From an uncultured virus (IMG/VR IMGVR_UViG_3300042471_000812) (Duplodnaviria; Heunggongvirae; Uroviricota; Caudoviricetes): a stretch of 20,000 nucleotides of DNA. Both the position numbers and the translations under genes were made by a program. The notes below the pieces were generated by a model that was given only the letters and a program-made list of their open reading frames with translations, did no database searches and had not been told where the DNA came from. This document shows positions 1 through 19,806 of this stretch, piece after piece (the stretch's first letter is position 1; the number at the start of each line of letters is the position of its first letter). The stretch lies in IMG/VR virus record IMGVR_UViG_3300042471_000812, one strand, 5' to 3'.

Positions 1-489
1 AAGTCCTTTACTATTGGCGAGGAGGGTTCTCGTACTGGTTATGGTGAAAATGTTGAGTCTAATACTTTCAATATGAAAGTTAATAGGTTGGAAACTGTGG
101 AAACTTATACTGGTGATAAGATTTTGACTGTTGGTTTATTTAGAATGGAAAAGGGGGACATTATACCCCCAGAAATATCAAAATACGTTCCTTCTGATAA
201 AACAGAAAAAAGGGTTTTTGTTGTCGGAGAGGTGCAAACTTCATATAAAACAAATGTAGGGACAAGGGATAGTGGTGGTACTGTGTATGTTCCTGCTACT
301 AAGCAAAATATAAGTGCCATTATTTCAAAGCTTACTCCATCAGACAAGGAAACAAGAAAGATGCTTGAAGATATTAATACTGGCAGGCAAAAGCTTGGTG
401 ATGGTAGGATAATCGGCGCAGCAACGAAGGGCGCCGAAAGGCAACCTAAGAGTGGTTTTAGTTTGTTAGAATTTGATAATATAGCATAA
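1..489 (+). CDS. 3' part of a hypothetical phage protein (possibly virion/ejection-associated), truncated by the window start
   Basis: The frame of ORF 73..489 is open back to base 1 (KSFTIGEEGSRTGYGENVESNTFNM...), so ATG 73 is probably internal. The TAA stop overlaps the next ATG (TAATG). Confidence 0.75.
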   Translation, partial: KSFTIGEEGSRTGYGENVESNTFNMKVNRLETVETYTGDKILTVGLFRMEKGDIIPPEISKYVPSDKTEKRVFVVGEVQTSYKTNVGTRDSGGTVYVPATKQNISAIISKLTPSDKETRKMLEDINTGRQKLGDGRIIGAATKGAERQPKSGFSLLEFDNIA

Positions 490-3400
490 TGAGTAAAGAG
501 ATACTAAAAGGCATATTTGAGGAGAACATAGCTCCTGTGCGTGAAGACATAACCTTTGAGGGTTGGGTAGATAAGATTAGGGATAACGAGGAGTACAAGG
601 TGGGTTTATTTGAGAACTACGTCCAGCCGAGTATGCCTGAGGCCACATTTGAGGAGTTTAATTCTAATGCGTTTGGAAGCCTGGGAAAGGTGGAGGCCCC
701 ACTTGCTGGGGCGCAATCCGAAGAAAGTTTTTCCCCTACCGAATCCGTATCGAGCGAATTTGAGGTAGGGCCACCTGCTGGGGGAACGCCTCCCGGTGTT
801 GAGCCAAAGGGTGCGCCGGTTGCTGAGGCTGCTGCGTTGGTTGGGGAGGTTGGCTCAGAGGGTGAGCCTACGATTATTGGGCAGGAGTTAGACCCTTACA
901 CGATTGTTGAGGAGGACGATAGGAATTTCTTTGAGCGTCTTTTTGGCGAGGAGCGTTATCGCAGGGTAACGGAGCGTGCGGTGGAAACGATACCGGCTTT
1001 GACTAGGTTATTTGGCAAGGCTGCTGCGAAGGATGTTCAGGAAGAGATAAATGATTTAGGTAGGGCTATGGAGGCTGACCCTGAGTTTGTGATTAAGGCT
1101 TCGCAGAATGGTCTTTTCACTACGAACAATTTAGCCACGTATTTAAGTCAAGAGGCTGCCGGGGATAAGAAGGGCGCCGAAGAGATAAATATGTTTTTAG
1201 AAAAGGGTGCAACGGGCAAGACTACTCAGTTTGAAAGGTTCAAGACGCTATATGCTCCAATCGAAAAAGAGCGCAACGAGGCTATACAAAAAGAGTTATT
1301 ATCCAACAGAGATTATGTAGCGTTAAGGGGAAAGATAGATGCTGAGTTTAATAGTCAGCGAGTAGGTGTTGATGAGAAGTATGATTTTAAGGCTTTGATG
1401 GGTGAGGAGTTTAAGGTTGGCGAGAAGGAATTGTTGGGCAAGTACGAATCTGCCACGCTTGCTTTACCTATGCAATTAGAAACCAAGGCGAGTGAGTTGA
1501 AGTTTGACTATCAGACCAAGGTGAATAATGGGCAGATGGGTGTTAACGAAGCCAATGAAGGCTTAAAGCGTGATTTAGATGCTTATGGTGCGGAGTTGCA
1601 GAAGCAGAGTGATGAGGCGTTGGGGGAGTATAATTCCGGCGTTAGCGCCTTGGCCGAAAGGGTACAAAAGGGTGTTAAGGATAAGCCAGAGTTCAAGGCT
1701 TACATGGACGAGTTGAACGACTTGCGTAATGGGGTTGTTGAGAGTTTTTCTGGCGATTACCAAAAGATTCAGCAGGCGGTGTTCAACAATATTGCCCCTA
1801 AGTACAACTCTAAGATTGAGAGTGCTATAACGAATAGCATGAAGGGTGAAACTCCTTTGCTTAACAAGTCTGGGGTAAAGGGTAATATTGACAAGATTTT
1901 GGGAAATAGGGGTTGGGATTACTTACCTTTCGACCAGAAGAAGGCTGCGTTGGATACTATGTTTGGCACTGCCTTATCTAAGTTAAAGCGTAGTGGTGTT
2001 CAGATAAACGATGGTGTTGTTGCTGGGTTGCGTGCTGAGTTTGACGATGCGTTTATGGATAGGGCGTATTTTACCAAGAAGGGTACTCCTTCTTTGTTTA
2101 TGGTAAAGACGCGTGCTATTGAGGAGGCTGAACGTCTTGACGAGATGCTTAAAGAGCGTGAGGCAAAGACTGGCACTAAGACATACACTTCTGGGATATA
2201 TGGTTCGGAGTTTGGTGTTGGCGGTATGGGTTATGATGATACTGACGTTCAGGAGTTGCGGTTAGCGAGGGAAAAGTTACAGGAGATAATTGAGATGCCT
2301 GAAACGATGTCGGATAATGAGTGGTCGAATTTTTGGAATGGGTTAACTTCTGGGAAGGTTGTTGATTATTTGCCTTTTGTTTCTGGGTTAAAGAATTTGA
2401 GTGGCACGTTGGCGTTGTATCGTGCTGTGGGTAAGGACACTGAATCTGCCCGATATTTGAAAAACGCCGAAGCGTTAAATTCCACATACAAAAATATGTA
2501 TGAGGTAAACAACATGGCTTCGGATTGGTATAGGGCTGGTAGGGGTACTGCCGAGAGTTTACCTTTTATGATGGAGTTTGCTGCCACCGCAGGGATAGGT
2601 AGTGGCGTAAGGATAGCAACTGAAAAGGTTGCTGTAAAGTTGCTTGGCAAACAGGCAGAAACGATGGTTGGCAAGTCGTTTAAGGTTCTTGCTGGAACGC
2701 TTGTTAGTTCGTTAGCGCAAACCACGTTAAACCCTCAGCGTTATGTAGATGAAACGTTGAAGCGTATGACGCCCCAGATGACTATTGCGTTTTCTCCTGA
2801 GGGTGATGATTTGGTTGCCATGTTAGACAGCAGTGATGCTGAGGGTGGCTTTGAGGCTGCGTTAAAAGGTTTTGGTGTAACCGCTTCCGAGTATTTCTCT
2901 GAGGGGTTAGGTTTTGCGGGAGCGAGGGCAATGAAAGCGTTGGGGAGTAAGATGTTGCAGAATGAGTTTTTGAAGAAGGCGTATGTGGGTTGGTATATGA
3001 GCAAGTTCAATTTAGATACACCTACTGCGTTTAAGAAGATTGCGGAGATGGGTGGTTGGAATGGATTTTTGATGGAGTTTGGCGAAGAGCTTGTAAACAT
3101 ACCGTTGACCAATTTGATTACTGGTGATGCGAAGGTAATGGAGGGCATCATTAAGGACGGGGAGTTTGATACTGAGAACTTGGCCGATATTGCTCGCACC
3201 TTATTGCCTATTAGCCTTGCTGGCGGTTCAGTTAGTTTGGGTGGTTTAGCTATCAACAAAATAGCCCCTGAGGGCGTTACGGTAACGTATAGGGACATTA
3301 ACAACCTGCCTACTACCGAAACCATTAACAAGGGTGTTTGGGACGCTGTAACTGAGGTTATGAAGTCTCCTTCCAAGGTGCGTGATTTTATTGCGAATGA

Positions 3401-6400
3401 GTTACCTAAGTTAAAGGTAGATGGTAAGGGTAGGGAGTTAGTAACTTCTATGTTAGAGCGTTCTGCTATTGAGTTTGATAGGGGTGTTGTTGGTGTTGGT
3501 ACGCGTCAGGTTGCTGAGGCTACTTCTCCTTTGGAGGTAACTTTCGAGCCTATTCCCGAAACGGGGGGCGCGCCGAAGGTTGAAATAATTGCCAAGCGTA
3601 GGCAGAAGTTAAACAAGGACAGGACTAAGTTAGTACCTACTGGTGGTTTTGATTATTTCGCAAAGGTAGGGGATAGAGAGGTTAAGTTAAGTGATGCTGA
3701 GTATAAGGCATATAAGGATAGCGGTGTGTTGCCTGAGAGTGTTTCGGCGGTTGAGGCTACTCCGAAAGTTGAGGGGGAGGCTGTTACTCCTGAGGCGGTT
3801 TCTCCTGAGGTTCCTGCGTTAAGAGATGTAGAGAGTACGGCTGAGGCGTTGGAGGGGGTTAATAATAAAAACCCACAAGAAATTATTGACGCTTCAAAAA
3901 AAATAGACAAAGTTGAATATATTGAAGAAGGTGAAGCAAGGGAAATTATAGAAAGTTACACTCATTATAAAAGTGGGAACTCAAAATCTCCAGCAACAAG
4001 ATGGGCGGGATGGTTTCAATCTATAAACGCAGCAAATAAAAAGTTTATAGTTGAAGATATACAAAATGACCCTAAATTAAGAAATGCAATGCTTTCTTTA
4101 TTTTTTGATGTATATAAGTCAGAGTTAAACTTCAAGGGCTCTTTTGATGATTTTTTAAATACCGAAATTACTCTTTATAGGGGTGTTACTTTGGCTGATA
4201 AAAAGGGCGTTGGCCAAGAAGGATTTTCAGCTTTTTCTACTACAAAAAATAGGGTTTCTGCATACGCTGATGAACAAGCCATAGGCAAAGGACAAGTTAA
4301 AGAAATTAAAATAAAGCCCATTGATACTTATGGTGCTGTGAATTATATTGGAGGTGGAGAGATAGAGGTTTTAGTCCCAACTGAATTTAAAAATGAAACA
4401 ATAAGGCAAGATTTTATCAGGCTTTTAGAATTAAATATAGGATTGTTTAGTGAAGAGCAAACAGAGCTGCTTGAGAAATACTACGACAAAGAAGATTACA
4501 TATCTGGATTGGCATTTATCAAATCTATAATTTCTTCCAAACCAAAACAACTTTCCGAAGCCTACCACAAGGCGAAGGAGGACGGAAGCAATCCTGAGTT
4601 AGTTAGTGCGGTAGAGGAGTTGTTAGGCAAACCCACCCAAACGCCCGAAGTCGCCGAAGGGCAACCTGCCGAGGTTATTTCCCCAGAGGTAGCGGAAGTG
4701 TTATCAACCGAGGACACCACACGTATTGCGTTAGAATCGCTAGAGGTGTTACCTGAGGGCATAGAGAGTGCCGAGGAAGGTGCGCGTATCTACCACGAAG
4801 CGATAGGCAAGGAGGAGCGTACTGAGGCTGAGGACGCTGTTGTTATGGCGGTGGAGGATGCGGTTATTGGTGGTGCGGTTGTGCCTGAGGTGGAAACTCC
4901 CGAAGCGGTAGAAACCGCCGAAACAGTTACCCCCGAAGAGGTATCTACCGAGGGTGTTACCCCAGAGGTTCCTGGGGTGGTGGAAGCCGCCGAAGGGCAA
5001 AGGCAGCCAAGTCGTGTAGCCACCTTTTTCTCTGGTGCAGGCACAATGGAAGCGTCTTTACCCAACGCCCAATCTGTTATGGCTGTTGAGTTCAACCCAG
5101 CGTACGTTGAAGCGTACAACAAAGCCTTTGGTGTTGAGTATGAAGCCAAAGATGTTAGGGATATTAACCCTGAGGAAGTGATAGCTTCTAAGCCGGACAT
5201 ATTCCATGCTTCTCCTGTTTGCAAGAACTTTTCGGCGGCCAAGAATAAACGAACAGTTTTGAAGTCAGATATGGAATCGGCTGATGCTGTTGCGAGGGTT
5301 ATTCGTGAGGCACAACCACCGATTGTAACGATAGAAAATGTTCCTGACTACCAAGGCACTGTTCCATTTGAAACAATAGTAAAGGCGTTAGAAGATGCGG
5401 GCTACACCTTTGATGTTGGAGTTTACAACTCTGCGGATTTCGGTGGTGTTCAAAATAGGGAGCGTCTGTTAATTCGTGCTGTGAAGAGTGGCGAACTGCC
5501 ACCTATCCAAGAGAAAACTGCTCCTGGGGATTGGTATTCTGCAATAGAGGATTTGATTGAAGGCGCTCCGGATTCAAAGTTTGAATCTAGGAGTGAGAGT
5601 GAGAATTGGGAGATGACTAGGATTAAGGATATGGTGCGTAAGGGTAAGTTAGATGCAACCAAGCCAATCATTACTATGGGTGGTTCTGCTTCTAGCGGTG
5701 TGGCTGCTGCTGCCAATGCTGGCGGCCCTGCGCCTACGTTATTAAGCACTTCGCGTTCTGTTCCAAGGATTATTTTGCCTGATGGCACAGTTAAGAGGGT
5801 AACTCCTGAGATGATGCGTAGGCTTATGGGATTGCCTGAGAGTTATCCTATACCTTCCAACCCAAAGATTGCGAAGGAAGTTTTGGGGAATGGCGTTGAT
5901 GGAGCGTTTACTAGGGCGTTGATTGACCCGTTGTTGAATCGCGCCGAAACGCAACCCAGCGCCGAAGCGCAACCCAGCGCCGAAGGTTTAACTTCTAAGG
6001 AGAAAGCAGAACAAGCCAACAAGCGCGCCGAAGAGATAGCCGAAAAGATACGCAAGAATTTAAGAGGTAGGGGCGGCATTACAGGCATAACGCCTTTTTC
6101 TCGCGCCAAGCGTTTAGCGGAGGTGGATAGGGCTACCCTTGCGTTGATTAAGGATTACATTTACCAAAAGGTTCTTGCCGGTGCATACACCTTCAAGGAT
6201 TTTGTGGAGGATATGAAGGAGAACAGCAAGCGGATTTTTGGTGTGCAGATTGAGGTTGCTAATTCTGATAAATCAATATTCCATTCAGCGCAGTCTCGTT
6301 TTGAGATAAACGATGCTTTTGCTCAGGAGATATTGGATTTGAAAGATGATTTTCTCTTTTCTATTGCCGCTATGTCTGGCCGAATGAATATGAATTTTCA

Positions 6401-9400
6401 GGAGTTTATATCTTCAAATAGTGCATTGGTTAACGGATTTGTGAATCGCGCCGAAAGCATTTACGGTTTAGACGATCAAGCTATGATGTTAGTGCAAGAG
6501 ATGTACCAAGACGCGTTACGTGCTGCTGCCAACCGCGCCGAATCGTACACTACTCTAGAAGATGTAAAGAAGTTCCACGAAACCAAGGAAGAGTTGTTAG
6601 GCTTAGAGAGGGACATGGAAAGGGCGCGTATCAACGAAGAGATAAAGCGTAGGCGTAACTGGTTGAGCAGAAACTTTGACAAGTTCCAGCGTGCGTTTAT
6701 TACTCCTGTGAAAAACTTTAATCGTGCGTTTGGGTATAGGGCTGGTAAGTTTTCCGATTACAGAACTTCGCAAGAGCGTGATGTATATTCTGCACGTAAG
6801 TATCGTATGGGTGCTTCCACCAAGGCAGGCAATTGGTACAATGCTATCCACAACAAGATTTATGGTGGGTTGTCTTGGTTTGAGAAGGTAGAGTTAGACA
6901 AGTATTTGATTTATCGTAGGATTGTAGAGGTTTCTGAGGTACGCAATCAAAGGGCTGCGGAGTATAAGAAACTCGAAGCTGAATTAGCGGCTGGCGTTAC
7001 TCCGGTAAGAAAGCAAGAGATTAAGGAGGCTATGGCGGAGCTTGAAAAGGCGGGCATGGGTGAGGTTAAGAGTGGTTCGATTATGGTTGATGGTAAGAAG
7101 GAGGAATACACTGTTGCGCTTGCTGAGGCGTTTGTGAATGACATAAACGCTCGTAATGATGCTTTGGCAATCAAAATTAGGAATCGCGCCGAAATGTACA
7201 CTGAGGCTAACAATGAGTTGTTAAAAATGCGTTTAGATTCAGGCGAAATATCTCAGGAGGCTTACGATTCAATGCAGAAGCGTGATTATGTTCGCAGGTT
7301 GTTTGTTGACCTTTCAAACACAACCTTAGATGAAGCAAATTATTCCCCTGTATCTAAAGAGATAAAAGCTATCAAGGAAGGTAGTGAGGACGCAATATTG
7401 GAGATGGATACTCAGGCTTTGTTGCAGATTAACGCTCAAATAACTTTCGATAGTGTTGCTAAAAACAACTTCATTAAAAAGGTTGTTGGTTGGTCGGAAG
7501 CTAAGCAGCAGGATTATTTAGACAAGGCGCTTGAAAAGTTCAAGGACGCTCGTGCTAGAACGGAGAGGTATCTTCGTTCTAGTCCTAGGCCATTAACTCA
7601 AGACGAGATAGACAGATTCATAAAGGAGCAGACGTTATTTATTCCTTTGAGTAATGATGCGAAGGTTCCTAGTGGGTTTACTGCGCAGAAGTATTTTGTA
7701 GATGGTGTTGAGAAGAGGGTTGCTGTTCGTAATGATATTGCAAACATATTTCAAACGCCAAGTGGAAGGGGTATTAACGAGAACAGTTTTGCTATTAAGG
7801 CTATATCTGCGCTTCTTTTAACTCCGGTCATTAAGGCTTCGGCGGTATTTGTAAACCCAGCGTTTGCGATAGGTAACTTTGCCCTTGACGTAATTCATGC
7901 GTCAATGGTTACTAGGGATTTGTATAAGTCGTTTACTTTTAACCTTGGTACTATTTTGGCAAAGGCTACGGGATATACTGCGGAGAACATATATCGCAAG
8001 GCGGTGAAGTATGGTGCTTCCCTTTTTGGTAGAACTGCCAGGGATTCAAAGTTCGAGCGTCTTGTAAAGGATTACTTTGAGCATGGTGGAGGTATGTCTG
8101 GCCTTTCCAATCCTTCGTCAAGAATGTATAGTGATAAGCTGTCTAGTAGTGCTTTGCGTAGGAGCTTTGGTGATGCTATGGATGGTATTATTGCTGTGTT
8201 GGACGTAATAAATTCTTTGCAATCGGGTTCGGAGCTTATTACTAGGGTTATTGTTTATGAGGCTGCATTGGATAAAAACATAGCGGCGTATAGGGAGAAG
8301 AATGGTGTTGACCCAGTTGGGGAGGATTTAGCGTTAATGAAGATGTCTGCGGCGGCGAGTTCTGCTGATTTGATTGATTTCAGGGAAGGCGCCGAAGCAA
8401 CAAAAGCGTTCGACCAAACCCTTCTGCCTTTCTTAAACGCTATGATTCAAGGTGCCAAGGCAGAGATTGATTTTGCATCCAAGAATCCTTTACTTGCTGC
8501 TGCAAGATTGGCAGAGTTTGGAGGTATGGCACTTGGGGCTGCTCTGTACAATGCTAATTCCGGAGATGAAGATGAAAAAGAGGGTATCGTTGGCTACAAT
8601 GGTATTACCGATTACATAAAGTCGAACTTCTTTGTAATGATGATGCCTTGGACTAAGAAGAATGAGCGTGGGGAAATTGTCCGTCCGTTCATATCAATTA
8701 AGTTGCCTGCTGCGTTAAAGGCCACGAACATTTTGGTTAGCGGTATGGTTGCTGACCAAGGGGCGGAGAATACTATTGGCCAAATGGCAAGTGCGTTAGA
8801 GGGTGGTTATGTTCCTGAGATTGGTTCTGTATCTCCTACCGCCCAGATTTTTATGGCTTTGAATTACAATAGGGATGCGTTTAGGAAGGGCGCTCCGGTG
8901 TATCGTGGTAGGGCAGACGTGTTATTAACTGAGCGTTTCAACGCAGGGGAAACGAAGGCTATTTATCGTGATTTGTTTGGTGCTATGTATGATTTAATCA
9001 ATGAGGATGGCGAGAATGAGGGTGTTTTAGGTTTTGATGAGGCGGGGCCGGCGCAATGGCAAGCGGCTTTCGAGAAGGCAATATCTTCAAACAATCCATA
9101 CTACCTTGGCATTACGTCCACCTACGCGACCATATCTTCGCTATACGGCAAGGATAATAAGAAAGAGGTAGATGCGCTTATGGACGAGAAGTTTGCTGCC
9201 TTAAATGCGTTTGGGAGCAGAGTATATCGCGAGCCGAATAGTAGTGTTCAGCAGAAGAATATGAAGGATAGGAAACAGGTTGATTTCCTTCGCGACCAGA
9301 TAGGTTCTTGGCAAAAAAAGAACGATGATGCTATTGAGTTTGCTGCCAAGACGATACGGGATATTAACAAGTTAGAGGGTAACTCGAAGAATGTTAAAAT

Positions 9401-9929
9401 AGATTTATTCTTTGACAGGGAGGTGTTTAATTATATTTCTGATGCTCAAATGATTAAGGGGATAAAGGATCAAGGCATAAAAGATATTCCTGAGAACTTA
9501 GATGACCTTAATAAAGTTATCAATAAAGAGCAAACTCGTTTGTCGTTGAGACTTTTAGAAGAGTTTAAACCAAACTTTGTTTTCAAGCATCCGGCGTTAA
9601 AGAGTTATGCGCAGAGTGAGGATTCTTATGTTGGTTTAAACGCCGAAATGATTAACAAAATTGCTAAAGAGTATGACAGTTCTAGGAATAGGAGGTCATA
9701 TCTTATTGCGTTGAAGTTTGTTGCTGGTGATGATTTTAAGAATATCGTTCAACAAATTGGGGCGCACGAAAGGGACTTGTCTGTTGTAGAAGGTATTACA
9801 GAAACTACGAGTGCAACTAAGTACAAGCGACTTTATCTTCGTCCTGATAATAGAAGCTCAAAGCCAATATCCTCCGAGTCTGCAATAAACAATTTGATAC
9901 TGCTAAAATATTTATTGACAAATGAGTAA
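489..9929 (+). CDS. Giant (3146 aa) polyvalent / internal virion (ejection-type) protein with ART-like, C5-DNA methyltransferase and LPD38-like domains
   Basis: Uninterrupted 9.4-kb ORF, translationally coupled at both ends. It has mostly helical-looking charged regions, Glu/Pro/Val/Thr linkers and the internal domains listed separately. It lies just upstream of structural and tail genes. Confidence 0.9.
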   Translation: MSKEILKGIFEENIAPVREDITFEGWVDKIRDNEEYKVGLFENYVQPSMPEATFEEFNSNAFGSLGKVEAPLAGAQSEESFSPTESVSSEFEVGPPAGGTPPGVEPKGAPVAEAAALVGEVGSEGEPTIIGQELDPYTIVEEDDRNFFERLFGEERYRRVTERAVETIPALTRLFGKAAAKDVQEEINDLGRAMEADPEFVIKASQNGLFTTNNLATYLSQEAAGDKKGAEEINMFLEKGATGKTTQFERFKTLYAPIEKERNEAIQKELLSNRDYVALRGKIDAEFNSQRVGVDEKYDFKALMGEEFKVGEKELLGKYESATLALPMQLETKASELKFDYQTKVNNGQMGVNEANEGLKRDLDAYGAELQKQSDEALGEYNSGVSALAERVQKGVKDKPEFKAYMDELNDLRNGVVESFSGDYQKIQQAVFNNIAPKYNSKIESAITNSMKGETPLLNKSGVKGNIDKILGNRGWDYLPFDQKKAALDTMFGTALSKLKRSGVQINDGVVAGLRAEFDDAFMDRAYFTKKGTPSLFMVKTRAIEEAERLDEMLKEREAKTGTKTYTSGIYGSEFGVGGMGYDDTDVQELRLAREKLQEIIEMPETMSDNEWSNFWNGLTSGKVVDYLPFVSGLKNLSGTLALYRAVGKDTESARYLKNAEALNSTYKNMYEVNNMASDWYRAGRGTAESLPFMMEFAATAGIGSGVRIATEKVAVKLLGKQAETMVGKSFKVLAGTLVSSLAQTTLNPQRYVDETLKRMTPQMTIAFSPEGDDLVAMLDSSDAEGGFEAALKGFGVTASEYFSEGLGFAGARAMKALGSKMLQNEFLKKAYVGWYMSKFNLDTPTAFKKIAEMGGWNGFLMEFGEELVNIPLTNLITGDAKVMEGIIKDGEFDTENLADIARTLLPISLAGGSVSLGGLAINKIAPEGVTVTYRDINNLPTTETINKGVWDAVTEVMKSPSKVRDFIANELPKLKVDGKGRELVTSMLERSAIEFDRGVVGVGTRQVAEATSPLEVTFEPIPETGGAPKVEIIAKRRQKLNKDRTKLVPTGGFDYFAKVGDREVKLSDAEYKAYKDSGVLPESVSAVEATPKVEGEAVTPEAVSPEVPALRDVESTAEALEGVNNKNPQEIIDASKKIDKVEYIEEGEAREIIESYTHYKSGNSKSPATRWAGWFQSINAANKKFIVEDIQNDPKLRNAMLSLFFDVYKSELNFKGSFDDFLNTEITLYRGVTLADKKGVGQEGFSAFSTTKNRVSAYADEQAIGKGQVKEIKIKPIDTYGAVNYIGGGEIEVLVPTEFKNETIRQDFIRLLELNIGLFSEEQTELLEKYYDKEDYISGLAFIKSIISSKPKQLSEAYHKAKEDGSNPELVSAVEELLGKPTQTPEVAEGQPAEVISPEVAEVLSTEDTTRIALESLEVLPEGIESAEEGARIYHEAIGKEERTEAEDAVVMAVEDAVIGGAVVPEVETPEAVETAETVTPEEVSTEGVTPEVPGVVEAAEGQRQPSRVATFFSGAGTMEASLPNAQSVMAVEFNPAYVEAYNKAFGVEYEAKDVRDINPEEVIASKPDIFHASPVCKNFSAAKNKRTVLKSDMESADAVARVIREAQPPIVTIENVPDYQGTVPFETIVKALEDAGYTFDVGVYNSADFGGVQNRERLLIRAVKSGELPPIQEKTAPGDWYSAIEDLIEGAPDSKFESRSESENWEMTRIKDMVRKGKLDATKPIITMGGSASSGVAAAANAGGPAPTLLSTSRSVPRIILPDGTVKRVTPEMMRRLMGLPESYPIPSNPKIAKEVLGNGVDGAFTRALIDPLLNRAETQPSAEAQPSAEGLTSKEKAEQANKRAEEIAEKIRKNLRGRGGITGITPFSRAKRLAEVDRATLALIKDYIYQKVLAGAYTFKDFVEDMKENSKRIFGVQIEVANSDKSIFHSAQSRFEINDAFAQEILDLKDDFLFSIAAMSGRMNMNFQEFISSNSALVNGFVNRAESIYGLDDQAMMLVQEMYQDALRAAANRAESYTTLEDVKKFHETKEELLGLERDMERARINEEIKRRRNWLSRNFDKFQRAFITPVKNFNRAFGYRAGKFSDYRTSQERDVYSARKYRMGASTKAGNWYNAIHNKIYGGLSWFEKVELDKYLIYRRIVEVSEVRNQRAAEYKKLEAELAAGVTPVRKQEIKEAMAELEKAGMGEVKSGSIMVDGKKEEYTVALAEAFVNDINARNDALAIKIRNRAEMYTEANNELLKMRLDSGEISQEAYDSMQKRDYVRRLFVDLSNTTLDEANYSPVSKEIKAIKEGSEDAILEMDTQALLQINAQITFDSVAKNNFIKKVVGWSEAKQQDYLDKALEKFKDARARTERYLRSSPRPLTQDEIDRFIKEQTLFIPLSNDAKVPSGFTAQKYFVDGVEKRVAVRNDIANIFQTPSGRGINENSFAIKAISALLLTPVIKASAVFVNPAFAIGNFALDVIHASMVTRDLYKSFTFNLGTILAKATGYTAENIYRKAVKYGASLFGRTARDSKFERLVKDYFEHGGGMSGLSNPSSRMYSDKLSSSALRRSFGDAMDGIIAVLDVINSLQSGSELITRVIVYEAALDKNIAAYREKNGVDPVGEDLALMKMSAAASSADLIDFREGAEATKAFDQTLLPFLNAMIQGAKAEIDFASKNPLLAAARLAEFGGMALGAALYNANSGDEDEKEGIVGYNGITDYIKSNFFVMMMPWTKKNERGEIVRPFISIKLPAALKATNILVSGMVADQGAENTIGQMASALEGGYVPEIGSVSPTAQIFMALNYNRDAFRKGAPVYRGRADVLLTERFNAGETKAIYRDLFGAMYDLINEDGENEGVLGFDEAGPAQWQAAFEKAISSNNPYYLGITSTYATISSLYGKDNKKEVDALMDEKFAALNAFGSRVYREPNSSVQQKNMKDRKQVDFLRDQIGSWQKKNDDAIEFAAKTIRDINKLEGNSKNVKIDLFFDREVFNYISDAQMIKGIKDQGIKDIPENLDDLNKVINKEQTRLSLRLLEEFKPNFVFKHPALKSYAQSEDSYVGLNAEMINKIAKEYDSSRNRRSYLIALKFVAGDDFKNIVQQIGAHERDLSVVEGITETTSATKYKRLYLRPDNRSSKPISSESAINNLILLKYLLTNE
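3861..4550 (+). other. AT-rich in-frame cassette encoding a putative R-S-E type ADP-ribosyltransferase domain within the giant protein
   Basis: Motifs in canonical order: ITLYRG (R at 4179), FSAFST (4224-4241), EIEVLV (E-x-E at 4359-4367). GC drops abruptly: 31/60 at 3781-3840 versus 17/60 at 3901-3960. Confidence 0.7.
5013..5935 (+). other. C5-cytosine DNA methyltransferase domain within the giant protein
   Basis: Ordered motifs: I FFSGAG, II AVEFNP, III DVRDI, IV HASPVCKNFS (catalytic Cys codon 5220), VI IENVP (5331-5345), VIII QNRERL, IX RVTPEMMRRLMGLPESY, X LGNGV (5883-5897). Confidence 0.92.
5941..5985 (+). repeat. 18-bp tandem repeat, about 2.5 copies (GCGCCGAA(A/G)CGCAACCCA; AETQPS-AEAQPS-AE)
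   Basis: Directly visible immediately after methyltransferase motif X. Confidence 0.9.
8361..9150 (+). other. LPD38-like (large polyvalent protein-associated) C-terminal region
   Basis: Pattern DF..G.........PFLNAMIQG, followed by a hydrophobic helix and then Y..ITDYIKSNFFV...ISIKLP, with an upstream NPAFAIGNFALD segment. Recognised from memory of this family; boundaries are approximate. Confidence 0.6.
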
Positions 9930-10326
9930 CTACACCAAACCGAAATTAAGGGAGAGCATTAAGGATAGGGTAATGGCTTCTAGCAAGGGTGGCAAGCCTG
10001 GCCAGTGGTCAGCGCGGAAGGCACAGCTTTTATCTCAGGAGTATGAGAAGAAGGGTGGGGGGTATAGTGGCGGCAAGAGTGGTGCCCAGAAGAGTTTAAG
10101 TAAGTGGACTAAGGAGGAGTGGGGTACTAAGAGTGGCAAGCCTTCTACGCAGGGGCCGAAGGCTACTGGTGAGCGGTATTTACCAAAGGCAGCGCGTGAG
10201 GCGTTATCGCCGAAGGAGTATGCTGCCACTTCTGCCAAGAAGCGTAGTGATACTGCCAAGGGCAAGCAGTTTAGTAGTCAGCCCAAGAAAATAGCAACCA
10301 AAACAAGTAAATATCGTGGAAAGTAA
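9922..10326 (+). CDS. Small basic conserved viral protein (DUF5872-like)
   Basis: 134 aa, Lys/Ser/Gly-rich. The YTKPKLRE...KGGKPGQWSARKAQLL..EY..KGGGY and SLSKWTKEEW...ERYLPK motifs are typical of a widespread viral family. Overlaps the giant gene stop. Confidence 0.8.
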   Translation: MSNYTKPKLRESIKDRVMASSKGGKPGQWSARKAQLLSQEYEKKGGGYSGGKSGAQKSLSKWTKEEWGTKSGKPSTQGPKATGERYLPKAAREALSPKEYAATSAKKRSDTAKGKQFSSQPKKIATKTSKYRGK

Positions 10327-10489
10327 GTTCAAGAAATTGCAAAAGAGTGTAGCCAAGGGCTACGCCGAAAAGGGTAGTAAGAAAGCTATGGAGATTGGCG
10401 CTGCCGTTGCGTATAAGCAGGGTGTCAAGAAATATGGCAAGGAGGTTATGACTAAGAAATCCATTGCCGGAAAGAAGAAAAAAAAGTAG
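10316..10489 (+). CDS. 57-aa Lys-rich small protein (not in ORF track)
   Basis: GTG 10316 to TAG 10489 gives MESKFKKLQKSVAKGYAEKGSKKAMEIGAAVAYKQGVKKYGKEVMTKKSIAGKKKKK. It overlaps the upstream stop and fills the gap in the operon. Confidence 0.75.
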   Translation: MESKFKKLQKSVAKGYAEKGSKKAMEIGAAVAYKQGVKKYGKEVMTKKSIAGKKKKK

Positions 10490-10768: not shown

Positions 10769-11070
10769 AGAAAGACTCTCGAATAGAGCGTGCAGGTGTG
10801 GCTGGGTTTAATAAACCTAAGGCCACACCTTCCCACCCTACTAAGAGCCATATTGTAGTGGCTAAGGAGGGTGATAAGGTAAAGACTTTGCGCTTTGGTC
10901 AACAGAATGTCAAGACCAACCAAACTGTCGGGCAGAGGGAGGCTTTCAAGTCTCGCCATGCCAAGAACATTGCGAAGGGCAAAATGAGTCCTGCGTATTG
11001 GGCAGATAAGGTAAAGTGGTCTAGTTCCAAGACAAAATCTCCATCTAAGAAATGGGTTAAGGGAAGCTAA
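10765..11070 (+). CDS. Small basic conserved phage protein (101 aa)
   Basis: NKPKATPSHPTKSHIVVAKEGDKVKTLRFGQQ...FKSRHAKNIAKGKMSPAYWADKVKW pattern, seen in aquatic phages near structural genes. Coupled on both sides. Confidence 0.8.
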   Translation: MKKDSRIERAGVAGFNKPKATPSHPTKSHIVVAKEGDKVKTLRFGQQNVKTNQTVGQREAFKSRHAKNIAKGKMSPAYWADKVKWSSSKTKSPSKKWVKGS

Positions 11071-11609
11071 TGTTACAGATAAATTTCACCGCCAATCTTG
11101 CAGAGAATTGCAAGGACATCAACTTGGTAGATACTACTGGGGATTATGATGCTGTAAACAATCCGGAAGGGTGGGGGGCGCCGAATGCGTCCACCTCTAA
11201 CATTTCCCAGTCAAACATATACATAACCCCTCCAAGTGGCATAAGCTACATCATAGGCGCCACAGCGTTACTAAACGATGAGCAGACTATCTTAGGCACT
11301 TCAATAGGCTATACTACCAAGTTGCCTGATGGCTATTACGACATAAGGTATGAGGTCCAGGGCACGTTTGGTGGGAATAGTGGTGTGTTGAGTAGTGAGC
11401 GTAAGAACGTGTTGTTTTACGGCAATGTATTCTGTTGCATTGAGAAGATGAATGTTGAGGGGGATTGTTTGTGTGAAACCTCTGAGCTTGAAGATATGCT
11501 GCTGTTGTTTGAGGCTATGAAGGCCGCCGATGAGTGTTGCGATATTGTTTGTGCCAAAAAGATACTTAATGAATTAACCAGGCGTTGTGCCAAAAAATGT
11601 AATTGCTGA
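11070..11609 (+). CDS. Putative structural protein: beta-rich N-terminal domain with a Cys-rich C-terminus
   Basis: 179 aa. DTTGDY...GWG...LPDGYYDIRYEV beta-sandwich-like region; the tail is Cys-rich (CC, CLC, CC, CxxxCxC). Confidence 0.7.
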   Translation: MLQINFTANLAENCKDINLVDTTGDYDAVNNPEGWGAPNASTSNISQSNIYITPPSGISYIIGATALLNDEQTILGTSIGYTTKLPDGYYDIRYEVQGTFGGNSGVLSSERKNVLFYGNVFCCIEKMNVEGDCLCETSELEDMLLLFEAMKAADECCDIVCAKKILNELTRRCAKKCNC

Positions 11610-12412
11610 TGAGCTGTAATTGTCAAGATACTCCTTGTTCGTGTGTAGATGGGTTGAACTCGTTTACCACTTTAGCGGCTAGTTTCACTCAGCCAGGTGT
11701 TGGGTTAAATGTTACCGTTTCCACCACTAACCTCGGCCAGTTGAATAACCGGTGGGTGGGTGTTAATCAGATTTTATATGTTGTGGGTGGTGGTTACTAC
11801 CAAGTGGTTAGTATCCCTAGCTTAGTATCTATCCAGCTTAAAAACTTGGGATATACTGGCAATGCTGCCCCTGCCGCTACGGTTGCTTCTGGGGGCAATG
11901 TGTCCCCAGGTGGGTTAGCTGGGGTTACCGGCCCTTCTGGGGTTAATGGCACTGTATTGTTGTTTAACGACCACACTCAGCAAACTGCGACTTCTAGTGC
12001 CACGTTATACACTTACTCAATGCCCCAAGGCACGTTAGCGCCGAATGGATCACAGCTAGAGTTAGAATTTTACATAAACACTTCTGTCAGCCCAAACACA
12101 AGGAATATGCGTATTGGGATTGGGGCCACTACCTTTGTTTTCCAGAACTTAGGATTATCTTCAAGCACTTTCGTTCAGAGGGGCTATGCTACGGTTACGA
12201 GGCTCAGTGCAACAACTGTTGCAATTTCTGTGAAGTCTGAGACATCTACTGTTTCCGGGAACTTAATCACTACGGAAAACTACTACACTACTTCTGCTGC
12301 TGTTACGAACTTGGATAGTGGTGGTGCCATTGCTATTACTTTGCAGAGTGTTATCTCTACTACGGGCACAATAACTGCCGAATACTTTACAATTAAAAGA
12401 AACTTGATATGA
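11609..12412 (+). CDS. Putative tail/fibre-associated structural protein
   Basis: ATG 11609 (TGATG overlap) is preferred over TTG 11603. N-terminus MSCNCQDTPCSC, short G-X-Y run (GLAGVTGPSGVNG), Thr/Ser-rich beta C-terminal domain. Confidence 0.7.
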   Translation: MSCNCQDTPCSCVDGLNSFTTLAASFTQPGVGLNVTVSTTNLGQLNNRWVGVNQILYVVGGGYYQVVSIPSLVSIQLKNLGYTGNAAPAATVASGGNVSPGGLAGVTGPSGVNGTVLLFNDHTQQTATSSATLYTYSMPQGTLAPNGSQLELEFYINTSVSPNTRNMRIGIGATTFVFQNLGLSSSTFVQRGYATVTRLSATTVAISVKSETSTVSGNLITTENYYTTSAAVTNLDSGGAIAITLQSVISTTGTITAEYFTIKRNLI

Positions 12413-14064: not shown

Positions 14065-14378
14065 TGGAGCCATACAAGTATGTGTGTAAATACTTAGATG
14101 CTTTGCACTCAGGGAACTGGGAGAAGGCTGAGGAGTATTTGGCATGTGCTAGGAAGGGCATTGTTGTTGTTATTCCCGACCCGAATGTTATCGGCCCCAA
14201 TGTTAGTTTGTATGTAAATGTTTGCAGTTATTTAGATGCTTTGCATTCTGGGAAGTGGGAACTCGCCGAAAAGTATCTTGCTTGTGCGAGGGCTTCATAT
14301 TTACTTTCAGGCTTACCCTTATTAACTGAGGGGGATGAGCCACTCCTTACCAATTTAGACGAAGAAATACTAGTGTAA
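14064..14378 (+). CDS. Hypothetical protein with an internal 27-aa duplication
   Basis: YKYVCKYLDALHSGNWEKAEEYLACAR (14073-14153) versus YVNVCSYLDALHSGKWELAEKYLACAR (14211-14291), 21/27 identical. Acidic LLTEGDEPLLT tail. Confidence 0.75.
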   Translation: MEPYKYVCKYLDALHSGNWEKAEEYLACARKGIVVVIPDPNVIGPNVSLYVNVCSYLDALHSGKWELAEKYLACARASYLLSGLPLLTEGDEPLLTNLDEEILV

Positions 14379-15201: not shown

Positions 15202-15202
15202 C

Positions 15203-16275: not shown

Positions 16276-16684
16276 CCACATCGTTCTGCACACAACAGCC
16301 AGCAACATAACGGCCACGGCTGACAGCATTAACCGATACCATAAAAAGGTACTGAACTGGGGTTCGCCCGGTTACCATTTTATCATTGAACGGGACGGCA
16401 AGGTAGTGGACAACTGGCCAATTGAAAAGACCACCAACGGGGTAAAGGGCCATAACCACGATAGCATTCATATCAGCTACATCGGCGGCATTGATGCCAA
16501 GGGTAAGCCTACCGACAACCGTACTAAAGAACAGAAGCAAGCAATGGCAGAACTGGTTACCAAGCTAACCGATAAGTTCCCAAACGCTAAGGTATTAGGG
16601 CATCGGGACTTTCCGAATGTCAACAAAGCCTGCCCATGTTTTGGTGCTGGGGCTTGGTGGGCAGAAGTAAAAAAAGAGTTATGA
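16262..16684 (+). CDS. Endolysin, N-acetylmuramoyl-L-alanine amidase (Amidase_2 / T7 lysozyme-like)
   Basis: IVLHTTA (Zn His), GYHFII, GHNHDSIHISYIGG, GHRDF (His) and KACPCF (Cys). ATG 16262 is preferred over TTG 16256. Confidence 0.92.
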   Translation: MRPINHIVLHTTASNITATADSINRYHKKVLNWGSPGYHFIIERDGKVVDNWPIEKTTNGVKGHNHDSIHISYIGGIDAKGKPTDNRTKEQKQAMAELVTKLTDKFPNAKVLGHRDFPNVNKACPCFGAGAWWAEVKKEL

Positions 16685-17112
16685 TCCGAATTGCCATTCT
16701 TTTCCTTTTACTATCATCGTGCATTACTGAGAAGAAGTGTAATGAGAAGTTTCCTCCAAGGGAAAGTGTTGAGGTTCGTGATTCTATTGTGTATCGCGAT
16801 ACGACTATAATCATTCCTCCGGACACTATATCCTTTACGTTTATAGATACGTGTCAGGATATGGATACTGTGTTTATTACCAAGAAGGGAAAGGTTCGGG
16901 TGATACGTGAGAAGGGTAGAATGTGGGTGGATTGTGTTACGGCGCCGAAGGATTTTATAGCCACCTTACAAGACCTCCACCGCCACACGATACGCACCAT
17001 AGTAAAGGGATTGACATGGTGGGAGAAAGCCTTTATTTTGATTGGTAAATTCTTTTTATTTTTGTTGTTAGCAAGTATGCTATATGTAATTGGGAAACGA
17101 TGGATAAGATAA
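16681..17112 (+). CDS. Lipoprotein with C-terminal transmembrane helix, probable unimolecular spanin
   Basis: ATG 16681 (ATGA overlap). Signal peptide II MIRIAILFLLLSS|C, a beta-rich middle, and C-terminal hydrophobic AFILIGKFFLFLLLASMLYVI followed by GKRWIR. Located between endolysin and holin. Confidence 0.7.
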   Translation: MIRIAILFLLLSSCITEKKCNEKFPPRESVEVRDSIVYRDTTIIIPPDTISFTFIDTCQDMDTVFITKKGKVRVIREKGRMWVDCVTAPKDFIATLQDLHRHTIRTIVKGLTWWEKAFILIGKFFLFLLLASMLYVIGKRWIR

Positions 17113-17552
17113 CTTTTAAGGCAACGCTGTTGTCATACATTTCGGTAGTGATTTCATTCTTTATCCCATTAGCCCCTTTATTAGTGCTAGTGTTTTTCGC
17201 TGTGGTTGCTGACACCTTTGTTGGCCGGTGGTATGCTAAGAGGACAGGGGAAGTGATAACAAGCAAGAAAACTAGGGAGGGTTTTACGGCCAAGATGGTA
17301 AGCTATTGTGGTGGCCTTACCTTTGTTTATTTGCTTGATTCTTGGGTGTTGAATGAGCTTGTGATGATGTACTTCCCGAAAGACCACTTTTCAACGCTTC
17401 TAACGGCCTTATTTTTGATTTGGATAGAATATACCTCGGTAGATGAGAAAGTCAAATGGGCAACAGGAAATGGCATTACAGACAGGGTATTTGACTTTAT
17501 CAAGAAGGCAAAGAAAGGATTAGGTATTATCCGGAGTGTCAAGCCTGATTAA
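17100..17552 (+). CDS. Holin (phage holin 4-like)
   Basis: Three to four hydrophobic segments, the D...G....R....ITSKK.REG..KM motif, IE..S.DE, and a basic C-terminus. Located in the lysis cassette. Confidence 0.8.
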   Translation: MDKITFKATLLSYISVVISFFIPLAPLLVLVFFAVVADTFVGRWYAKRTGEVITSKKTREGFTAKMVSYCGGLTFVYLLDSWVLNELVMMYFPKDHFSTLLTALFLIWIEYTSVDEKVKWATGNGITDRVFDFIKKAKKGLGIIRSVKPD

Positions 17553-17877
17553 ATGTGCTGTTCTTTGTGCCGACCCCAATATGGCGAAGCACTATGAAGA
17601 TGTTTTAACAGACAAGGGGATATATTGCGTTAGGAAGAGGGGGTTTGAGATGATTGTTTCCTTTGACAACAAGTTTTCCCCAGATTTATACTTTGTAGAT
17701 TTCTCTTGTATTTCCTTTAAGGGGATAGAGGTTATGTATATGATAAAAAAGATTAGGGCCATAACCATGTCTCGGAAGGTTTTTATCCGCCGAAAGGTTC
17801 ACATCATAGGCTATGGCGCCAATCGTCATTTGTTTAAAATAGTAGATAGGTGGGTGGATTCAGTCCACGATATTTGA
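17536..17877 (+). CDS. Degenerate CheY-like receiver-domain protein
   Basis: GTG start. KCAVLCADPNMAKHYEDVLTDKGIYC...SPDLYFVD......GIEVMYMIKK...HIIGYG matches the REC beta/alpha pattern by eye. Confidence 0.5.
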   Translation: MSSLIKCAVLCADPNMAKHYEDVLTDKGIYCVRKRGFEMIVSFDNKFSPDLYFVDFSCISFKGIEVMYMIKKIRAITMSRKVFIRRKVHIIGYGANRHLFKIVDRWVDSVHDI

Positions 17878-17973: not shown

Positions 17974-18372
17974 CTAAAGAGTTGGTGGGGAGTCTTCACT
18001 CTTTTTTTTAGTGGTTCTACGCCGTTTATTAGGATTGTCAGCAGATCGTAATCCTCCATCGGGAGCATGTGCTTCATCAGGAATTTGAGTGTTTTGAGTT
18101 GTATCTTCTTCATAAAGTCCAAATAGTTGTAGTAGTTGTAATGGGAAATCCTCTCTTAGTGCATTGGCACGTTTCCCTTCGGCGTGGCGTTTATTCCAGA
18201 GGGCTTTAAACTCCATGCCTTTTTTAAGCATGGCCTTCTGTGCGGCTTGCATATCGGTTTCCCCTTCGGCCACTTGGAAGGTGATGTTTTTGGCAGACTC
18301 AATAAATTTGCCAAGTATCTGCTGGTCGTTTTCTACGGCCTTATCGTTTATTTTTCTTTGTCTTCGGTTCAT
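17974..18372 (-). CDS. Hypothetical protein (132 aa)
   Basis: ATG just downstream of the terminator, MNRRQRK N-terminus, disordered charged C-terminus. Confidence 0.65.
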   Translation of the reverse strand: MNRRQRKINDKAVENDQQILGKFIESAKNITFQVAEGETDMQAAQKAMLKKGMEFKALWNKRHAEGKRANALREDFPLQLLQLFGLYEEDTTQNTQIPDEAHAPDGGLRSADNPNKRRRTTKKKSEDSPPTL

Positions 18373-18382
18373 GATAAAAGTT

Positions 18383-18410
18383 AAAAAGCCCCAGCTGTTA
18401 CACTGGGGCT
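18383..18410 (-). terminator. Rho-independent terminator
   Basis: On the - strand: AGCCCCAG-tgtaacag-CTGGGGCT followed by TTTT, about 10 nt after the stop of 18420..19103. Confidence 0.8.
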
Positions 18411-18419
18411 GTGGTTAAT

Positions 18420-19103
18420 TTAGAATGGGAAGTCCTCATCATCGCTCTCGGCCAAGAGTTCCTCTTCCCCTTGGGTTAGAGGCTTATCTGTTTCCGGGGT
18501 GGTGGGAGCTGTGCCAAAGTATGCCTCTAGGTAATCCTCTAGGAGTTGCCACACGCCCTTGCCAGACTCTTCCTCTTGCGGGGTTGTTTGCTCTAGGGTG
18601 AACTTGGGGAACTTGTAGGATACAGCGCCTTTCTTACCGGAGCCAACCTCTGAGAATTTAACTGCTCCATCGTACATGCGGTTGTTCTTTTGGAAATCAA
18701 CCCATGAGTTAAGGGCAGCGCCGGAGAGTTTGATGTTGCCAAGTTTAACCTCGCCATCGACTTCTATTGCGATGTAAATGGAGGAGGTAAACTTAATGCC
18801 TTTGGGCAGGCTTTCTTTCATTTGGCTATACAGCCCTTTTTTAATTACCCCAGACTTAGTTCTGACGGTTATCTCTTGCTTTGTGGTGTCCCTCACCTCA
18901 TTGGCATACACGCCTTGGTTTGAACTTTCGTCAAAACCGGTGATGGTGCTAAGGACATCTAGCACAATAAACCGCCCCAGTTCAAATGGGACTCTGGTAC
19001 CTGCTGCTTTATCATAGTAGCGAAAGTTACCATCAGCACCACCCCACTCTAACCAAAGAGTGCAAGGGTGCTGGTTTGTGTTACGAGGCTTAAATCTGCT
19101 CAT
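18420..19103 (-). CDS. Putative single-stranded DNA-binding protein
   Basis: Beta-rich, aromatic-rich core and an acidic tail ending SDDEDFPF, resembling the bacterial SSB C-terminal DDDIPF motif. Confidence 0.65.
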   Translation of the reverse strand: MSRFKPRNTNQHPCTLWLEWGGADGNFRYYDKAAGTRVPFELGRFIVLDVLSTITGFDESSNQGVYANEVRDTTKQEITVRTKSGVIKKGLYSQMKESLPKGIKFTSSIYIAIEVDGEVKLGNIKLSGAALNSWVDFQKNNRMYDGAVKFSEVGSGKKGAVSYKFPKFTLEQTTPQEEESGKGVWQLLEDYLEAYFGTAPTTPETDKPLTQGEEELLAESDDEDFPF

Positions 19104-19121
19104 AGTTTAACGGATTAGTGG

Positions 19122-19319
19122 TTAAAATTTTTTGCCGTAGGGCTTTAGTTCTTTGATAATGTTTTTGATTGCTGTGGCGTTTCTAACTAGCCGGAAGGAA
19201 GCTTTGCTCATAGTTTTCTGGGCAGTTTTGCATCCATTTTCGGCTTCTTCAATGTGGAGTTTTAACTCTACGGACAAGTCCTCAATGTTAGCTAGTAGGT
19301 GTAGTGCTGCTTGTTTCAT
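19122..19319 (-). CDS. Small helical protein, possibly Hc1 (histone H1-like) related
   Basis: ENGCKTAQKTMSKASFRL resembles the recalled Hc1-family core ENGNKAAGTRARKASLEL. Confidence 0.5.
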   Translation of the reverse strand: MKQAALHLLANIEDLSVELKLHIEEAENGCKTAQKTMSKASFRLVRNATAIKNIIKELKPYGKKF

Positions 19320-19806
19320 CTTTTACGAATATGCCACCTTGTGTCTTGCCAGTACGGTTTTTGATTTGTTCCCATGCTAGGGAAAGACATTCGGCGAGGT
19401 TAATGTTTCGGAGTTTACAATAGATTATGAGTGTTACAAGCACGTCTCCCACAGCGTCTTTTTCTTCTTCTTCTTTGTTTTTAAGCAGTGCGCTTGCAAG
19501 CTCACCACCTTCCTCAAAGAACTTTAGGAGTTGGGATTGGGGGGAGGTTATGCCTCTGGCATTTGCCCAGGCTTCAATGCTTGGGATAAGGGTTTCGATT
19601 GGTGTGGGTAGGGGTGCGCCGGAGTTTATGCCGACAGACTCCCAATATAGCAAACCTTCGGGGGCATCTTTCCACGAAAAGCCTCTTGCAAGTGCTGTAC
19701 GGAAAGAGGTTACTTTGAGGTCTTTGACCTCTTGGTTTAGGTTGGAGAGTGCCTTTTGCTTTACTCCTTCGGGTAGTTCTAAGAACCATTCTTTGATTGT
19801 TTTCAT
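19288..19806 (-). CDS. MazG-like nucleotide pyrophosphohydrolase fused to an N-terminal phage domain
   Basis: IEAWANARGI...QLLKFFEEGGELASALLK....EEKDAVGDVLVTLII...CL..AWEQIKNRTGK shows the MazG EExxE / ExxD pattern. There is an extra N-terminal domain of about 65 aa (GFSWKDAPEGLLYW). Confidence 0.85.
   Translation of the reverse strand: MKTIKEWFLELPEGVKQKALSNLNQEVKDLKVTSFRTALARGFSWKDAPEGLLYWESVGINSGAPLPTPIETLIPSIEAWANARGITSPQSQLLKFFEEGGELASALLKNKEEEEKDAVGDVLVTLIIYCKLRNINLAECLSLAWEQIKNRTGKTQGGIFVKDETSSTTPTS

Follow-up and report, generated by a model that had tools for sequence, protein, structure and literature searches.

The heptamer CGCCGAA as a selected cis-acting DNA word across the genome of a freshwater podophage

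A 20,000-nucleotide stretch of an uncultured Caudoviricetes virus (IMG/VR record IMGVR_UViG_3300042471_000812), called the window here, carries the heptamer CGCCGAA 23 times on the + strand and 5 times on the - strand, where 200 dinucleotide-preserving shuffles gave a mean of 1.33 copies (standard deviation 1.14, largest 6). The evidence supports CGCCGAA as a selected cis-acting DNA signal that overlies coding sequence and is independent of reading frame. A preliminary description of the window had proposed such a signal and added that it was strand-biased and quasi-periodic. Its 28 coordinates and strands are all exact, and a frame-independent cis-acting signal is upheld by the word's place as an outlier among 7-mers, an antisense excess, common flanks and conservation, whereas the periodic component is not. 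Window positions 1-19608 correspond to the reverse strand of a 65,101-bp IMG/VR virus contig that is linear and about 90% complete, and a contig position in window orientation equals the window position plus 45,493. Over this contig the word occurs 75 times (52 + and 23 -) compared to 5.0 expected on both strands from base composition, an excess of ~15 fold at a density of 1.15 per kb, and the reversed control word AAGCCGC occurs 5 times. The last 392 bases of the window (19609-20000) lie beyond the contig; since public contigs continue past window position 19991, the true genome is longer than 65.1 kb.

Shuffles that preserve codons or dinucleotides rule out a codon, amino-acid or dinucleotide artefact. 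Synonymous-codon permutation within genes yielded 4.3 +/- 1.7 sense and 5.2 +/- 2.0 antisense copies, and third-base permutation that keeps the protein and all dinucleotides yielded 10.5 +/- 2.4 and 5.8 +/- 1.9 (300 shuffles each), compared to 48 sense and 18 antisense copies observed in coding sequence. CGCCGAA ranks first of all coding 7-mers under both nulls (z = 24.5 and 15.3), followed by words that overlap it, and its reverse complement is also among the top 7-mers (z 6.5-6.8). Where the amino acids permit the word, it fills 47 of 148 sense-strand and 18 of 145 antisense-strand positions; one 7-mer on a third of compatible sense positions indicates a phage lineage paying for something important. 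The earlier claim that the word runs against codon preference is borne out, as codon usage predicts GCC-GAA at ~12 of the 115 Ala-Glu pairs and 39 have it, even though GCT is commoner among Ala codons (36%, GCC 25%) and GAG among Glu codons (57%). Called open reading frames (ORFs) contain 66 of the 75 copies, or 67 when a MazG-domain ORF that runs off the contig is counted, its copy at window 19390..19396 having been tallied as intergenic. Some copies do have a trivial origin: three belong to a coding tandem of 18-bp period, four or five to an N-R-A-E peptide context that recurs, and three or four intergenic copies in the early gene arm overlap GC-rich terminator-like hairpins. Once these cases are removed, more than 60 copies are left. 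An RNA hairpin or tetraloop (GCC-GAAA-GGC, C-UUCG-G) was rejected because it fits a handful of copies only, and an inserted mini-element was rejected because the portal-gene copy sits, without an indel, among residues invariant in 50%-identical homologues.

Alignment of the 75 copies revealed that CGCCGAA is the strict core of an asymmetric DNA site of ~30 bp. All 21 one-mismatch variants are found at no more than 2.6 times expectation, with position 0 alone somewhat relaxed, and two of them, CGTCGAA and CGACGAA, are absent from the phage because it avoids CGWCG generally. Upstream of the core there is C at -15 in 46 copies, S at -14 in 66, R at -13 in 60, A at -12 in 45, a base other than C at -11 in 74 and G at -1 in 36; downstream, +7 is not C in 74 copies and +9 is G in 46, followed by W-W-A at +11 to +13. 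Read 5' to 3', the consensus is Y-C-S-R-A-W (-16 to -11), about ten free bases, (G)CGCCGAA and R-R-G-n-W-W-A. The upstream C-S-R-R element accompanies 33 of the 75 exact cores (44%) compared to 4.2% of all positions, and only 11 of 124 one-mismatch cores; downstream R-R-G accompanies 41% of exact cores compared to a background of 6.6%. The upstream element resembles a second, weaker half-site, CCGAW, placed 17-18 bp ahead of the CCGAA of the core with 1 bp of play either way. It is present at 5 of 18 antisense and 4 of 9 intergenic copies and in all three sense frames, and this recurrence of the flanks across sense, antisense and intergenic copies indicates that the signal is written at the DNA level.

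Selection acts on the number and local presence of copies, not on fixed positions, and holds about one copy per kb in a single lineage of freshwater podophages. Fourteen loci from metagenomes and IMG/VR with 80-100% nucleotide identity to the focal phage have 0.8-1.45 copies per kb, and eight loci of equal G+C whose portals are 42-54% identical have one copy in ~44.5 kb. Related phages keep the sites above the 7-mer background, at about twice its level: 15 of 24 sites compared to 33% of all 7-mers in L014 (81.6% identity), 14 of 14 compared to 51% in L011, 6 of 9 compared to 32% in L012, 7 of 12 compared to 31% in L015, 6 of 8 compared to 27% in L016, and 1 of 2 compared to 36% in L017. L014 also has six copies without a counterpart in the focal genome, several differing there at 3-5 of the 7 bases, and its loss of the site at 33658 is offset by a new copy 15 bp away. 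In two distant relatives, L019 and L023, 12-bp tandem repeats in coding sequence account for the top words, and those of the others did not reach significance on loci of 2-10 kb. Sharing of the site by unrelated phages was considered and rejected. At least 118 stretches of viral contigs carry two copies of the word 17-18 bp apart, from which 80 loci were ranked by copies over expectation, and the flanks, compared for eight of these 80, are unlike those of the focal phage. Top 7-mers were checked in five of the 80 loci, all CpG-rich (odds 1.18-1.81), and the word was on top in L220 alone (6 copies in 10 kb). The stretch itself recurs in lake and freshwater metagenomes, with at least half of the sampled words present in 19 of 24 runs among the matches listed, nine of which may equal the source sample. 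Searches of phage records with the DNA and with the portal protein gave no match.

The orientation of the word follows the architecture of the genome only in part. Small early genes lie on the - strand (contig 1-20.6 kb), head genes on the + strand (21-30 kb), and a late arm runs on the + strand without interruption for 31 kb (32.3-63.4 kb). The late arm carries the word at 35 of the 91 positions able to hold it on the sense (+) strand and at 6 of 86 on the opposite strand, whereas no bias is seen in the early arm (6 of 32 and 4 of 29) or the head genes (3 of 17 and 5 of 22), so that outside the late arm ~18% of compatible positions are occupied on either strand. The strand bias first reported thus holds for the late arm and not elsewhere. 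This polarity opposes local composition, because the + strand is G-rich there (GC skew peaks in the late arm at +0.15 to +0.33) and the word is C-rich; the skew is also positive over contig 12-32 kb. Spacing of the 75 copies fits an exponential distribution (coefficient of variation 0.95, Kolmogorov-Smirnov P = 0.83). The best period among late-arm + sites, 1180 bp, has a power of 6.05 compared to a 95% null point of 7.9, and the best period in the window, 1190 bp, has a power of 5.16 (P = 0.11). The quasi-periodicity that had been claimed is therefore not borne out, and the series spaced 1081-1290 bp apart was a hand-picked subset of copies. High occupancy and Poisson spread together point to the anatomy of a genome-wide word, not of gene-linked regulatory sites.

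We infer that a protein acting in a direction-dependent manner recognizes the word on phage DNA. Chi, FtsK orienting polar sequences (KOPS) and uptake sequences revealed how bacterial DNA-tracking machines recognize self and direction, and by analogy with the first of these we tentatively favor, with a probability of about 0.3, a Chi-like word that a nuclease tracking along DNA reads in one orientation. In this model a helicase-nuclease that processes DNA ends would travel along phage DNA and, on meeting the correctly oriented word, would switch from degradation to a recombination-proficient mode; dense co-oriented copies would thereby shield phage DNA that is broken, restricted or at a concatemer tail. 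The candidate enzyme could be a host AddAB, or a phage PD-(D/E)XK nuclease together with an SbcCD-like pair. Chi words are read as single strands and are 5-8 nt long, and the phage word resembles them as a short, exact and asymmetric word that overlies genes, is in excess, prefers one orientation over large blocks, is lineage-specific, and matters by number rather than position. We favor this reading because the word is exact, frame-free, dense, polar over a long block and selected by number, and also because of nuclease pressure on the phage, its nuclease genes, and the presence in Bacteroides of an AddAB without a known Chi. If a host AddAB does read the word, it would name the Chi of a Bacteroidota lineage and show a phage that exploits it; a phage-encoded reader would instead define a new class of genome-wide signal on phage DNA. 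In both cases the 30-bp consensus can serve directly as bait for the reader protein.

Family searches with 73 phage proteins against Pfam, PHROGs and NCBIfam found the PD-(D/E)XK nuclease, an SbcC/Rad50-like ATPase and a metallophosphoesterase. Word avoidance in the contig gives strong signs of nuclease pressure: GATC occurs 27 times compared to 171 in a Markov expectation, GTSAC once compared to 106 and CGWCG 7 times compared to 82 (both zero-order), GGWCC, TCGA, CATG and GGCC are also depleted, and the 6-bp palindromes CATATG, CCATGG, CTTAAG, CTGCAG and CTATAG are absent. As for AddAB, a 2010 paper (PMC2887965) places the enzyme in Bacteroides, with its Chi not known at that date.

The host is probably a member of the Bacteroidota. 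Four leads point there, short of proof: no Shine-Dalgarno sequence was seen ahead of starts, TAnnTTTG boxes (the promoter consensus of Bacteroidota type) lie 5-36 nt ahead of several genes, a beta-clamp homologue is structurally closest to Bacteroidota clamps, and a serine invertase has weak similarity to the Mpi family. An N6/N4 methylase was rejected as a host marker because its homologues are promiscuous across phyla. No tRNA was found in the phage, and a search of 185,579 species genomes with the portal protein found no relative. We reached the phylum via a methylase homologue in a Lacibacter chromosome and searched 401 genomes drawn evenly from the Bacteroidota for phage-like enrichment of the word.

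Several observations weigh against a Chi-like word. None of the 401 genomes had phage-like enrichment, the best ratio of word to control being 4.5 compared to 15 in the phage, and the genome with this best ratio is CpG-rich, has the variants in equal abundance and lacks the flanks at its copies. Nor is polarity consistent in the two of these genomes listed in detail, G001 and G129, the first 100 sites of each mixing the two strands. One-strand runs that appeared in many Bacteroidota genomes were discarded as an artefact of listing forward sites first, since the full listing of G129 has sites on both strands of its three contigs (23+:33-, 16+:12- and 3+:13-). Within the phage, polarity is partial, with 39+:8- copies over contig 32-65 kb and 13+:15- in the other half. 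Recognition also extends past the short word, as the upstream element in 33 of 75 copies and the downstream preference attest; we know of no Chi word with a second element at a fixed distance of 15-16 nt. Known Chi words are G-rich and CGCCGAA is C-rich, and the phage's density and ~15-fold excess are far above those of Chi in host chromosomes. Because the excess of Chi in hosts is modest, the 401-genome result is compatible with a host Chi; within the genomes searched, which cover one phylum, it argues against a host word like an uptake sequence.

The main rival reading, itself tentative, is that a sequence-specific phage DNA-binding protein occupies the dispersed copies, which would form an array akin to stoperators or dispersed operators, or that the protein acts as an architectural element or polar roadblock. 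Such a protein would contact the strict core and the weaker CCGAW half-site 1.5 turns upstream. The flanks, and the lack of polarity over half the genome, fit a duplex-binding protein better than Chi, and the site is bipartite and asymmetric with 1 bp of spacing play, has flanks tied to the exact core, follows the late operon in orientation and is lineage-specific. The phage also encodes small, generic helix-turn-helix (HTH) proteins, among them a stand-alone protein like DnaA domain IV (115 aa) and an HTH_3-like one (149 aa). An account of Cluster A mycobacteriophages (PMC9283540) offers a precedent, in which a monomer uses two domains to read an asymmetric site, present in more than 20 dispersed copies oriented with transcription. 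Stoperators share with the phage word a two-part asymmetric site, tens of copies over a genome of ~50-65 kb, an orientation tied to transcription and a lineage-specific sequence, but they occupy promoters and short intergenic gaps and are oriented with transcription in both arms (PMC9283540), whereas nearly all copies of the phage word (66-67 of 75) lie inside ORFs and no orientation rule holds in the early arm. The 75 sites far outnumber those of operator arrays known so far, the enrichment hardly extends to one-mismatch cores, a stricter requirement than transcription factors usually impose on their sites, and the location inside genes at such density is left unexplained. No repressor or integrase was recognized among the phage proteins, and because of this and the absence of a portal relative in the species genomes, lysogeny is doubtful.

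A less probable and frankly doubtful reading is a genome-wide self-word by which the phage marks its own DNA and its direction, with the terminase, the polyvalent cargo or a nuclease as candidate reader. The anatomy is closest to the uptake sequences of Pasteurellaceae and Neisseriaceae, which likewise combine a strict core with weaker phased flanks of ~30 bp, occur about once per kb in all frames with some copies in terminator hairpins, and show no enrichment of one-mismatch variants. Uptake sequences, however, belong to the chromosomes of competent bacteria, in which they are hyper-abundant, whereas the phage word is polar in one arm and no such abundance was found in the 401 Bacteroidota genomes. 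The phage word has features in common with Chi, stoperators and uptake sequences but lacks at least one testable defining feature of each; it belongs with genome-wide, selected, orientation-sensitive recognition words, here in a phage and with a bipartite footprint. A search of the literature on over-represented, strand-biased phage heptamers turned up nothing relevant and no described phage self-word system, and a text search for CGCCGAA gave incidental matches only, such as primers.

Promoter-like sites for an alternative or phage-encoded specificity factor of RNA polymerase are unlikely. The factor would drive sense transcription in the late arm and antisense transcription in the early arm, with -16 to -11 in the role of a -35-like box, GCCGAA in that of a -10-like box, and transcription beginning from the A at +13. 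The geometry, an 8-mer and a GCCGA-containing 8-mer separated by 11 nt, resembles the sigma-28 consensus (TAAAGTTT-N11-GCCGATAA), the sense bias of the late operon would fit, and five intergenic early-arm copies point against the early genes. There is also a weak excess of copies at most 200 nt upstream of a co-oriented start (17 of 74 compared to 9.8 expected, P = 0.018), with no excess within 100 nt and most copies far from any start. Against such sites, the 73 proteins include no recognizable sigma factor or sigma-70-family domain and no RNA polymerase, the polymerase motif DxDGD was not found in the 3146-aa protein or other large proteins, operon heads carry ordinary TAnnTTTG host-type promoters, and promoters on both strands, one every 0.9 kb, are implausible.

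Recognition of the word by a particular phage machine, for packaging initiation by the terminase or for handling by an ejected cargo protein, is improbable. The word could then accumulate by a drive like the one proposed for bacterial uptake sequences, whose anatomy and occasional hairpin copies it shares, and at 15 times the reversed control in the phage and at most 4.5 times in the 401 genomes it could discriminate phage from host DNA. To our knowledge no terminase works through a genome-wide self-word, and the late-arm polarity would be left unexplained.

We give similarly little credence to the word as the target of a phage DNA-modifying or nicking enzyme, the copies then marking the DNA epigenetically or structurally. 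Candidates are supplied by the three DNA methylase genes or domains that the 65-kb genome encodes, among them a C5 domain in the 3146-aa protein and an N6/N4 or Dam-like methylase, as they would be by an unrecognized nickase making T5-like site-specific nicks, and exact-word recognition is typical of such enzymes; the second sequence at a fixed distance with 1 bp of play resembles separate catalytic and recognition modules. Being a target does not by itself select for more copies, however, and no nickase family, HNH or GIY-YIG enzyme was found among the phage proteins.

Primase or lagging-strand initiation sites, which the preliminary description had put forward, are very unlikely. In the late arm the word does lie on the presumed lagging-strand template, as judged from GC skew, but known primase sites are trinucleotide-based, the spacing is irregular, contig 12-32 kb has positive skew without a word bias, and neither a primase nor a DNA polymerase gene was recognized. 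Two further systems offer limited parallels. KOPS and SpoIIIE recognition sequences (SRS) are polar duplex words that direct a DNA motor, but they are G-rich octamers skewed towards dif, and no translocase link was found for the phage word. The strand-exclusive Type III sites of T7 likewise place an asymmetric word in one orientation over a phage genome, but they avoid inverted pairs, whereas the phage word is in excess and has 23 of 75 copies on the other strand.

Least credible of all is a functionless by-product of amino-acid repeats, codon or codon-pair preference or neighbor-dependent mutation, for although GCC-GAA is a codon pair and the tandem and N-R-A-E copies fit this, the excess survives both permutations, extends to three frames, antisense and intergenic copies with flanks in common, and is lacking in relatives of ~50% portal identity with the same G+C.

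Most copies in the window fall in a late-arm gene for a 3146-aa polyvalent-type virion protein (489..9929, +) with a C5 cytosine DNA methylase domain (aa 1510-1805) whose best solved relative is M.HhaI, and with weak LPD14 and ParB_N hints, the rest being unassigned. A tally for this gene gives 20 of the 28 window copies (17 + and 3 -), of which the coordinates below place 15 + and 3 - within it. Reading frames are as first described: Ala-Glu for the most part, A/S-P-K/N at 3571, 10208, 11179, 12039 and 16943, and R-R-K at 17788. Just before the gene, the + copy at 432..438 is read in sense as xxC-GCC-GAA (K-G-A-E-R-Q) near the 3' end of an ORF ending at 489. Within the gene, + copies in the A-E frame lie at 1175..1181 (with both upstream C-S-R-R and downstream R-R-G), 2465..2471 (upstream element), 4652..4658 (in a low-complexity stretch whose length differs between populations), 4916..4922 (where one contig of run X20 has an extra 18-nt unit with GCCGAA), 4988..4994, 6026..6032, 8390..8396 and 9641..9647. 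The + copy at 3571..3577, also with the upstream element, is read as xCG-CCG-AAx (A-P-K). Three + copies at 5942, 5960 and 5978 (5942..5984) have an 18-bp period and encode a hexapeptide repeat (..SAEAQP..), and part of the excess there is driven by the protein repeat. The N-R-A-E context is found at 6449..6455, 6536..6542 and 7187..7193 (all +) and again at 5942. Antisense (-) copies in the gene are at 3743..3749, with the upstream element on its own strand, 5231..5237 and 7838..7844. Public contigs differ over window ~3780-5970 by deletions of 277-972 bp and by the 18-nt repeat unit, and this part of the gene is a length-hypervariable linker region.

Downstream of this gene, + copies occur at 10208..10214 (ORF 9922-10326, S-P-K), 10363..10369 (a small + ORF, A-E), 11179..11185 (ORF 11070-11609, A-P-N, upstream element), 12039..12045 (ORF 11603-12412, A-P-N), 14264..14270 (ORF 14064-14378, A-E), 16943..16949 (ORF 16636-17112, A-P-K) and 17788..17794 (ORF 17536-17877, CGC-CGA-AAx, both flanks). 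The remaining two are sense copies in - ORFs, at 18178..18184 (ORF 17974-18372, A-E) and at 19390..19396 in the MazG-domain ORF (19288-19806, L-A-E).

Among the 401 Bacteroidota genomes, four (G113, G137, G361 and G313) are nearly without CGNCG. In these four, CGCCGAA is found 0-1 times compared to ~350-650 for the control word, CGCCGA 1-2 times compared to ~1,150-2,000, and CGACGA 1-3 times compared to ~2,200-2,700. In G137:C1:1-400000 (L107-L126, 43.1% G+C), the four CGNCG 5-mers are each found 0 times compared to 124-164 expected from a Markov model, and in G189 CGNCG is depleted roughly ten-fold. G137 avoids other words than the phage does, so it is not an obvious host. In L217, an unrelated IMG/VR viral contig, CGTCTGA/TCAGACG occurs 13 times compared to 1.3 expected, which we take to recall the core of the Neisseria uptake sequence.

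Other observations concern the phage genome outside the word. GTGCGTG was rejected as a second polar word because 6 of its 10 + copies form one local cluster. A cluster of GTGCGTG, GCGCGTG and GCGTG repeats lies within 135 bp (L003:8750-8890, contig 18,215-18,350, outside the window) in the sole + ORF of the early arm, and could be an iteron-like or origin region. A module shared by intergenic regions of the early arm (L003:9800-14600, contig ~12.5-17.3 kb, outside the window) has a GC-rich hairpin GCGCCGG-N8-CCGGCGC followed by a T-rich run and continues with TTAACCCTTTAAT repeats that end ~10 nt ahead of ATG; such modules may be early terminators combined with an unusual early promoter. Strand counts in the phage are 16:1 for AAGGGTTA and 15:2 for TTAAAGGT. 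The portal is P22-like, and a 1506-aa protein of the late arm (L002:2436-6956, -; contig 39,146-43,666) matches the crAss-virus muzzle family (PF25731, E = 1e-34).

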